The notes beneath the pieces are model-generated. The model saw only the letters and a list, made by a program, of their open reading frames with translations. It had not been told where the DNA came from and searched no databases. From contig JBFFIY010000003.1 of the NCBI GenBank assembly GCA_041556195.1, forward strand, positions 7,504 to 71,503: DNA of 64,000 bases, written 5' to 3'. Origin of the DNA: Enterobacterales bacterium (GTDB lineage Bacteria; Pseudomonadota; Gammaproteobacteria; Enterobacterales; GCA-002770795). The position numbers and the translations under genes are program-made. Of this stretch, positions 22,613 through 23,296 are shown in pieces; position 1 is the stretch's first letter, and the number at the start of each line of letters is the position of its first letter.

Positions 22613-23296
22613 TTATTCCTGCATAATTAAAATAGCACGCTCATCTATGCAAGAATGCATAAATTTTATCATAGCCTGAGGCTCACCAGTTTCATAATAA
22701 TCTAACATTAATTGATTAAATTCTAGCTGCCGCTTAGCGGAGATGTTTATTGCGGGATAACCGGCGCTTAAAAGTATGCCATTCATCATAAAACGTCCCA
22801 TTCTTTTATTAACGTCATAAAAAAACTGGGATCTTGCCATGGTTAGAAAAACACAAATGGCGCGTTCATAAATGTCATCTGTTTTATTTGCAGAATTTAT
22901 CATTTCTGTAAATAGTTGTGTTAATTCACTCGCGTCAGGCGGTATATAGTCAGTTCCGGCAATCATGACATTACCAGAACGAAAGTTTCCCCATTCTAAT
23001 GCTTCTTCAAAACCTGCAATTTTATGTAAGTCCCAGGCGTATTGTGCTGATAATTCAAATGAGTCTACTTTTATCGACTCAAATAAATGCCGCCAGGCAT
23101 TAGCCTGGTTGATAGCTATTTGTTGGTCACTTAATTTATGCCCGCCGACAGTTATGCCATCAAGCAGGGTTTGTATTTCAGGTAGTGTGAAATGGATACC
23201 TTCCAGCTCTACCGCATCTTGAACAAATACGGCTAATTCGCGCTTTGCCAGCATGAGGGCTTTGTCTTTATTGGGATTGATGGTTATATTGTTCAT
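22613..23296 (-). CDS. Fic/Doc-family protein with non-canonical active-site motif
   Basis: 227 aa. SQFFYDVNKRMGR aligns to HPFxDGNGRxxR with His replaced by Gln and a Doc-like N-K-R. The N-terminal AVELEGI resembles the (S/T)xxxE(G/N) inhibitory-helix motif. Confidence 0.7.
   Translation of the reverse strand: MNNITINPNKDKALMLAKRELAVFVQDAVELEGIHFTLPEIQTLLDGITVGGHKLSDQQIAINQANAWRHLFESIKVDSFELSAQYAWDLHKIAGFEEALEWGNFRSGNVMIAGTDYIPPDASELTQLFTEMINSANKTDDIYERAICVFLTMARSQFFYDVNKRMGRFMMNGILLSAGYPAINISAKRQLEFNQLMLDYYETGEPQAMIKFMHSCIDERAILIMQE

Follow-up and report, generated by a model that had tools for sequence, protein, structure and literature searches.

The catalytic histidine is invariant in the Fic loop consensus HxFx(D/E)GN(G/K)R, and Fic and Doc enzymes target GTPases. 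In the 64,000-nucleotide stretch of an Enterobacterales contig analysed here (JBFFIY010000003.1; hereafter the window), an open reading frame (ORF) on the minus strand encodes a Fic-like protein with glutamine at the histidine position, and the ORF of a Roc GTPase starts 238 bp away. The locus raises the questions of whether the Fic-like protein acts on that GTPase, as the first-pass annotation had proposed, and whether a Fic fold with this replacement is a pseudo-enzyme or uses altered chemistry. Taken as a whole, the analysis makes it likely that this intact gene belongs to a Gln-type Fic clade, is kept by purifying selection, stands alone, moves horizontally and is of effector type, and that its adjacency to the Roc gene is incidental.

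A FICD-like protein with glutamine at the histidine position

The features of the gene, all on the minus strand, are as follows.

22613..23296 (−): Fic-like ORF, complete from ATG to stop, 227 amino acids (aa), a Gln-type, FICD-like, single-domain Fic-fold protein
22793..22831 (−): active-site loop, S156-QFFYDVNKRMGR-168, aligned residue by residue with FICD, Gln157 at the His position
22937..22990 (−): flap counterpart, G103-x-F-R106...V110-x-I-x-G...P119-P120, from the FICD alignment; FICD has GRFRTTQVLVGHHIPP there
23195..23215 (−): A28-VELEGI-34, likely counterpart of the class II inhibitory motif, from the FICD alignment and a helix of the AlphaFold2 (AF2) model

Fic (PF02661) was the sole Pfam domain in the protein, matching residues 82–175 with an E value of 5.3e-9; its score of 37.3 bits exceeded the gathering threshold of 24. 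In a phmmer search against all PDB sequences, human FICD/HYPE ranked first (E 5e-13, residues 25–218), and with the family profile FICD was matched at E 7e-17 over residues 25–222, whereas a Doc structure reached E 0.35 over a local stretch. The AF2 model, for which the input alignment comprised 29 homologues, was all-helical with 11 helices, a mean predicted local distance difference test score (pLDDT) of 91.6 and a predicted template modelling score of 0.89. When this model was compared with the PDB by Foldseek, Fic proteins were returned exclusively: the template modelling scores (TM) of FICD entries were 0.77–0.83, normalised to the query (0.80 for 4u04), and that of C. difficile CdFic (4x2d), which is equal in size, was 0.81 in both directions. 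The assignment to the Fic/Doc family made in the first pass was thus confirmed, by a Pfam match above the gathering score and by a structure model that resembles both FICD and CdFic at a TM of about 0.8. All the sequence and structure matches in the PDB were at most 24% identical to the protein and those named were all canonical Fic proteins; therefore, no Gln-type member appears to have a solved structure. The Doc model TIGR01550 (DOC_P1) scored 24.2 bits, below its cut-off of 38.65, and hhalign against an approximate P1 Doc sequence gave a probability of 17.6% over 48 columns around the loop. The scaffold is FICD/CdFic-like and nearer to FICD than to Doc, with a loop that carries the Doc-type Lys.

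In the phmmer alignment, 'marsQffyDvNKRmgR' lay over 'yiHpfiDgNGRtsR' of FICD, and the loop read Q-F-F-Y-D-V-N-K-R-M-G-R. Gln157 occupied the position of the catalytic His363, Val162 that of the first Gly and Lys164 that of the second Gly, so that the three replacements read from the loop in the first pass are all real and in register. Asp161 fell on the position of the Mg2+ ligand, Asn163-Lys164-Arg165 formed the Doc-like N-K-R that had also been recognised, and Arg168 corresponded to the second Arg. The protein therefore departs from a canonical Fic loop at His363 of FICD, and of the N-K-R and the catalytic His that together characterise Doc it has the former and not the latter. As the first pass had advised, an intact His-containing Fic motif was sought elsewhere: there was no second one in the protein, nor was any alternative His conserved clade-wide.

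Class II Fic proteins reportedly have an N-terminal intramolecular inhibitory helix with the motif (S/T)xxxE(G/N). The protein has a likely counterpart, 'aVELEGihfTL' being aligned over 'tVAIEGntlTL' of FICD with Glu32 at the position of FICD Glu234, and A28–I34 lies at the end of the AF2 helix 21–31. AVELEGI, likened to the class II motif in the first pass, aligns with FICD TVAIEGN and resembles that motif in part: the Glu and Gly are present, but the S/T is replaced by Ala at a position, 28, that varies among A, T, M, S and I across clade representatives. Downstream, the sequence of the flap counterpart points to a flap hairpin.

In common with FICD/HYPE and CdFic, which are class II Fic AMPylases/deAMPylases, the protein has the loop residues Asp, Asn and Arg, a GxFR flap segment and an xxxxEG helix at the N-terminus; it differs from them in the changes from His to Gln, from the second Gly to Lys, from the first Gly to Val and from the S/T of the inhibitory motif to Ala, as well as in having no TPR or other extra domains. 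With phage P1 Doc, an EF-Tu kinase, it has in common the x-F-x-D-x-N-K-R loop and its diagnostic Lys, whereas Doc retains the catalytic His and is only ~126 aa long. Doc is partnered with the Phd antitoxin and has neither a flap nor a Glu-bearing helix at its N-terminus. No Phd-like gene was present upstream of the Fic-like ORF in the window, the upstream gene being metJ.

Glutamine as a conserved character of the clade

A word-indexed search returned 1981 homologous clusters, the best 120 of which were 64–76% identical to the protein, ~230 aa long, and derived from Gammaproteobacteria (Spartinivicinus, Zooshikella, Marinobacter), Desulfobacterota and others. Among these 120 closest homologues, about 113 had Gln at the His position, a few had Arg or Glu and none had His, and the loop QFF[YF]DVNKRMGR was nearly invariant. 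Because this loop is shared by ~113 of the 120, chance and sequencing error are excluded as its origin. An exhaustive hidden Markov model search was then run over 1.84 billion cluster representatives (50% identity); 3787 clusters passed E<1e-3, of which 1307 also passed E<1e-10 and 164 passed E<1e-30.

Conservation was counted in the best 150 of the 50%-identity representatives, which were profile-aligned with no motif filter. Gln157 was found in 114 of 123 representatives (93%), Lys in 5 and His in 1, which answers the call of the first pass for a survey of Gln and His variation among homologues. The positions around it were similarly kept: Asp161 in 109/119, Asn163 in 116/118, Lys164 in 113/118 and Arg165 in 114/118 representatives, as were Gly103 (125/135) and Arg106 (128/131) of the flap segment and Glu32 (121/127) of the putative inhibitory motif. 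Arg168 was far less kept (79/118). In canonical class II Fic proteins, the equivalent of Arg168 is the salt-bridge partner of the inhibitory Glu. Glu32 occurred with Arg168 in 50 and without it in 30 of the 81 full-length representatives, being kept at 95–99%, and its retention without Arg168 in about one-third of members suggests a role beyond auto-inhibition. There was no universal His across the clade that could compensate for the catalytic one, the candidates H53 and H91 being present in 36 and 55 of 81 representatives, respectively. This pattern indicates strong and specific purifying selection on a complete phosphate- and Mg2+-binding loop, with the base position fixed as Gln, and not decay.

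It is accordingly scarcely credible that the gene is a pseudogene in decay, or that a His codon (CAY) was misread as CAG in sequencing. The Gln157 codon in the window is CAG, a single third-position change from His, and the adjacent Roc-COR gene contains a homopolymer frameshift; however, the Fic-like ORF is full length and co-linear with its homologues, and thousands of independent sequences share the Gln.

The protein is almost certainly a member of a Gln-type Fic clade. Such a group was described in silico as 'Doc clade D2', with the motif Qx[F|Y]x[D|E][G|V]NKR, from 45 sequences placed inside the Doc branch; selection on the Gln was argued to imply a kept function, and the proteins were considered maybe not inactive (Khater & Mohanty 2015, Sci Rep 5:10804, PMC4454073). 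The motif is identical to Q-F-F-Y-D-V-N-K-R at residues 157–165, and in both studies the proteins are single-domain and bacterial. Compared with clade D2 of 2015, the Gln clade found here is far larger, occurs on many plasmids and is nearer to FICD/CdFic than to Doc. The gene thus adds a member to an already noted, experimentally unexplored clade.

The homologues were bacterial, save for one contig of a metagenome-assembled genome (MAG), 'Promethearchaeota archaeon' (JAIWHJ010000145.1). There, a 65%-identical copy lies on a 5.5-kb contig binned as an Asgard archaeon, which is probably bin contamination and otherwise recent horizontal gene transfer.

A solitary gene carried by mobile elements

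To describe the gene neighborhood, we drew on 80 of the 476 loci with close homologues that were found in 185,579 species genomes, each with flanks of at most 8 kb. In an all-versus-all BLAST of the 1027 ORFs of these loci, no family besides the Fic gene itself occurred in more than 16 of the 80, and the larger neighbor clusters consisted of generic signal-transduction proteins and an IS200-like (Y1) transposase. The 150 immediate neighbors comprised 179 Pfam families, of which the commonest, Y1_Tnp (IS200-like), was found at 5 loci, and the neighborhoods included many housekeeping genes. There was no conserved small upstream ORF in the 80 loci. In flank-to-flank blastn comparisons, DNA homology ended ~40–70 nt upstream and 25–100 nt downstream of the gene in subsets of loci. 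An integron cassette or mini-element was considered and dropped, as the folded downstream 110 nt had no common attC-like or terminator structure. Multiple copies per genome were present in Zooshikella, Spartinivicinus and a Desulfovermiculus MAG.

Matches were found on 515 plasmids of PLSDB, and the Q loop was present in all six sampled plasmid regions (P. salmonis, F. novicida, C. sporogenes, Lactobacillaceae, E. faecalis and C. jejuni). The copy on Piscirickettsia salmonis plasmids (63% identity) was followed by a serine recombinase gene 3–4 bp downstream, the pair being bracketed by IS6 copies, and that on Francisella novicida pFNPA10 (61% identity) had a serine recombinase gene one small ORF away downstream. 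This arrangement of Fic and then serine recombinase spans 5001–6272 and 4974–6243 in two P. salmonis plasmid loci (L083 and L084) and 3998–5590 in that of pFNPA10 (L086), and the pair may be a transposable two-gene unit. More divergent plasmid copies had the loops QFYYDGNKR (Clostridium sporogenes, 41% identity) and QIFWDGNKR. The latter was found in Lactobacillaceae, where a conserved ORF of ~66 aa precedes the gene in the interval from repA to mobQ, and in E. faecalis, where the gene adjoins a cluster of AAA-ATPase, helicase and TIR genes and shares its plasmid with a canonical HPFREGNGR Fic. The ~66-aa ORF (MTK..KEVE.I.QLLADPW…KHFVI), seen ~50 bp upstream in L. plantarum and L. sakei plasmids (L088 3714–4783 and L095 3687–4690, respectively), could be a subclade-specific antitoxin or regulator. 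On Acinetobacter plasmids, a more degenerate Q-type domain (QFTFEGEKR) forms the C-terminus of a Zeta-toxin kinase. In A. baumannii pD4 (NZ_KT779035.1; L085 3218–4720), this is a 500-aa 'zeta toxin family protein' with an N-terminal P-loop kinase and a 75-aa ORF before it, and contigs of 'Acinetobacter phage MD-2021a' encode the same Zeta-Fic protein. Zooshikella harenae has an unfused Zeta_toxin gene, 86 bp upstream of its Fic-like gene.

A phage origin was set aside, with one IMG/VR locus and five remote INPHARED matches, although the group fits PHROG 11900 well (E 9e-52, function unknown). On these observations, the Fic-like gene behaves as solitary mobile cargo, which chromosomes and many plasmids carry and phages do so rarely.

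Could this cargo be a stand-alone abortive-infection or defence toxin of the SoFic/PDC-S04 type, or an orphan toxin of a toxin–antitoxin (TA) module? PADLOC gave weak matches to PDC-S04 (E 3.7e-11, full length, 40.7 bits) and SoFic (E 2e-9, 35.3 bits), which are likewise single-gene, Fic-fold and island-borne, and some homologues stand beside DpdE, SNF2 or ZorD-like, PIN or HTH genes. The cluster next to the E. faecalis plasmid gene, the candidate antitoxin of the Lactobacillaceae and a RelE/HTH pair close to the gene in the window point the same way. However, the PADLOC scores indicate remote Fic homology rather than family membership; SoFic, which AMPylates, keeps the catalytic His and is ~360 aa long with a C-terminal extension; and no conserved antitoxin accompanies the close subfamily. 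Defence neighbors were confined to a minority of loci; PADLOC matches (DpdE, SNF2) among the 150 neighbors came from three to four loci, and the three DpdE cases were all from Desulfotignum MAGs. We therefore consider a defence or orphan toxin unlikely. In the three Desulfotignum loci, the Fic-like gene stands beside very large DpdE-like helicase genes (PADLOC DpdE E values down to 7e-220), which represent a Dpd-type DNA-modification defence cluster.

Probable absence of a functional link to the neighboring Roc GTPase

The neighboring gene is given below.

22374 (start; −): Roc + COR-A ORF, 238 bp from the Fic-like ORF, Pfam E 1.4e-23 (Roc) and 7.5e-19 (COR-A)

The gap of 238 bp had been stated correctly in the first pass, and the ORF beyond Roc + COR-A is COR-B (Pfam). 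That the His-less Fic binds or modifies the adjacent Roc GTPase, the two genes forming one system, would be consistent with their position on the same strand, with the absence of a terminator-like site between them and with the established targeting of GTPases by Fic and Doc enzymes. Promoter- and terminator-like matches in the window were no commoner than in shuffled sequence, and are uninformative on an operon.

Co-location did not recur. When the Roc, COR-B and MetJ proteins of the window were used as queries in blastp and tblastn searches, there was no match in the 80 Fic-homologue loci; a Pfam scan found no Roc or COR domain among the 150 immediate neighbors, which included two MMR_HSR1 matches; and no Roc or COR product was annotated in any of 10 plasmid regions. 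From the other side, the homologues of the Roc protein of the window were solitary genes encoding ~830–880 aa, and no Fic gene was present in any of five loci around four Roc-COR homologues.

Moreover, the reading frame of the Roc-COR gene is broken here. Over 19838–22374 (−) of the window, its coding sequence is divided between a Roc + COR-A ORF of 515 aa and a COR-B ORF of 329 aa, whereas its homologues are single ORFs of 830–880 aa. Full-length homologues match frame −2 as far down as 20833 and frame −1 starting at 20872, and the shift at this junction (~20833–20872) sits in an A7 run (TTTAATAAAAAAATCG). The break could reflect a true frameshift or pseudogene, phase variation, or an assembly error in the homopolymer. 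The N-terminal ~220 aa of the Roc protein (21500–22400 of the window) had no Pfam match and contained an Ala/Ser/Asn-rich low-complexity tract (…AANALDASNDAAYAASNDASNAVSAASAASNAAY…), which coincides with a GC content of 0.42 and with a Pro/Thr-rich ORF at 21984–22139 in another frame of the same strand.

Thus, in the loci covered, the survey of neighboring GTPases that the first pass had suggested never placed homologues near Roc-COR genes, which is the outcome that the first pass itself had named as speaking against the link, and both genes act as independent solitary cargo. Very probably, the Fic-like gene has no functional link to Roc and the adjacency is incidental; the proposed action on the neighboring GTPase was not upheld, and we regard a single Fic–Roc system as highly improbable.

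Catalysis or binding with the histidine replaced

The remaining part of the first-pass proposal, a pseudo-enzyme or altered chemistry, is a question for the whole clade and not for this locus. If the proteins are enzymes, Asp161 would ligate Mg2+, and Asn163, Lys164 and Arg165 would help it to hold the metal and the phosphate groups of the ligand, a nucleotide or a phosphoryl compound. In Doc, the Lys in place of the second Gly makes the enzyme bind ATP inverted and hence transfer the gamma-phosphate; the invariant Lys164 would probably set an inverted, Doc-like nucleotide orientation here. The G103-F-R106 flap segment may dock a macromolecular target, and Glu32 might gate the site by blocking the gamma-phosphate, or join the reaction by positioning water as in FICD deAMPylation. 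Because Gln is unable to deprotonate a hydroxyl, what is left is base-free catalysis, hydrolysis through Glu32, or binding without catalysis. In the first case, a phosphoryl or nucleotidyl group could be transferred to an anionic or strong nucleophile that needs no deprotonation; in the second, Glu32 might serve as the base while Gln157 orients the water. The protein may act, presumably under auto-inhibition, as toxin- or effector-type cargo of mobile elements, an effector- or toxin-like role being suggested by analogy, from the plasmid and island distribution and the weak similarity to PDC-S04 and SoFic.

The main alternative is a pseudo-enzyme, that is, a dead Fic fold which has kept its pocket and flap and serves as a sensor of a nucleotide or phospho-ligand, a binder, a regulator or an immunity protein. 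It is consistent with the lack of a general base in 122 of 123 representatives, with the Acinetobacter QFTFEGEKR domain, whose fusion to a Zeta-toxin kinase fits a regulatory or targeting module, and with the Zeta-toxin gene directly upstream of the Zooshikella homologue. A possible variant is that the protein neutralises a canonical Fic or another toxin, and the E. faecalis plasmid with both a canonical Fic and a Q-clade gene would suit this variant. Fic–Fic neutralisation is documented in C. fetus, where Fic1 neutralises Fic2 (PMC5651007). C. fetus Fic2 and the Bartonella Beps also provide a precedent for Fic proteins with deviant loops that are still biologically active, but Fic2 keeps its His and its toxicity needs it (H184A) (PMC5651007). 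On the other hand, conservation at 92–98% in very divergent members extends to every other catalytic or metal-binding residue and to the presumed inhibitory Glu, there is little reason for a dead enzyme to keep an auto-inhibitory Glu and an Mg2+ ligand, and no canonical Fic or other recurrent partner stood beside the close homologues in the 80 loci. We give a pseudo-enzyme a real but distinctly less than even chance.

Judged from the conserved residues, catalytic activity rather than pure binding is about evenly poised. An active enzyme is slightly favored over a non-catalytic binder, by a small margin, because the Mg2+ ligand is kept, the Glu is kept even without Arg168, and the replacement is one specific residue. 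Several observations weigh against our reading of the gene as an active effector. Gln cannot serve as a general base and, to our knowledge, mutation of the His greatly cuts or abolishes activity in every characterised Fic/Doc enzyme. A non-catalytic protein that binds a ligand or target would be expected to show the same conservation pattern. Lys164 is the single residue that speaks for a Doc-like nucleotide orientation, in a protein whose profile is much nearer to FICD, and the flap region is the least confident part of the AF2 model (pLDDT 73–76), with no strands assigned. A full-text literature search turned up the in-silico description of 2015 and no experimental study of the Gln-type group. 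Finally, no antitoxin or partner of the close subfamily was found in the 80 loci, which leaves a toxin role as conjecture, nor was there a consistent defence-island context across them. Any specific chemistry is doubtful at best. That the Gln clade, whose thousands of sequence clusters on plasmids and chromosomal islands range from Proteobacteria to Firmicutes, is catalytic without His by a mechanism that would be new to the Fido superfamily, and serves mobile elements as an effector in addiction, defence or establishment, with the gene of the window as an ordinary member, is a tentative proposal with the balance against it.

The islet between metJ and metH

In the window, as in the matching public contig, the gene order is metJ, Fic-like, Roc-COR-A, COR-B, RelE, HTH_3 and metH. 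The features flanking the Fic-like and Roc-COR genes are as follows.

23352–23663 (−): metJ, upstream of the Fic-like ORF, PF01340 E 1e-43, NF003622 157.9 bits
18904–19612 (−): overlapping pair of a RelE-family toxin (PF06296) and HTH_3, a HigBA-like TA module, between COR-B and metH
15104–18847 (+): metH

The GC content was 0.32–0.36 over ~19.1–23.0 kb, except for 0.42 at ~21.5–22.4 kb, and ~0.40–0.46 in metH and beyond metJ. The picture is that of a low-GC islet of three unrelated accessory modules (Fic-like, Roc-COR and RelE/HTH) between two housekeeping genes of the methionine regulon, metJ and metH, and ~19100–23000 looks like a small insertion hotspot. There was no second Fic-like copy in the window. 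Elsewhere, 29915–35437 (+) encodes a multidomain signalling protein of 1840 aa in which, by eye, CheB/CheR-like methylesterase/methyltransferase modules appear to be followed by a coiled coil, by repeats of PAS and GAF, and by GGDEF-EAL.

Implications for the Fic family

The gene of this window is a further copy of an accessory gene that is widespread, and the proposed Fic–Roc partnership is not real. The clade with Gln for His that was noted in 2015 is now far larger and more mobile than was then reported. Since the clade combines a FICD-like scaffold with a Doc-like Lys and keeps every active-site residue but the base, it is a clean case for whether the Fic fold works without histidine, and the hosts of the plasmid copies from Piscirickettsia, Francisella, Enterococcus and Lactobacillaceae are culturable.

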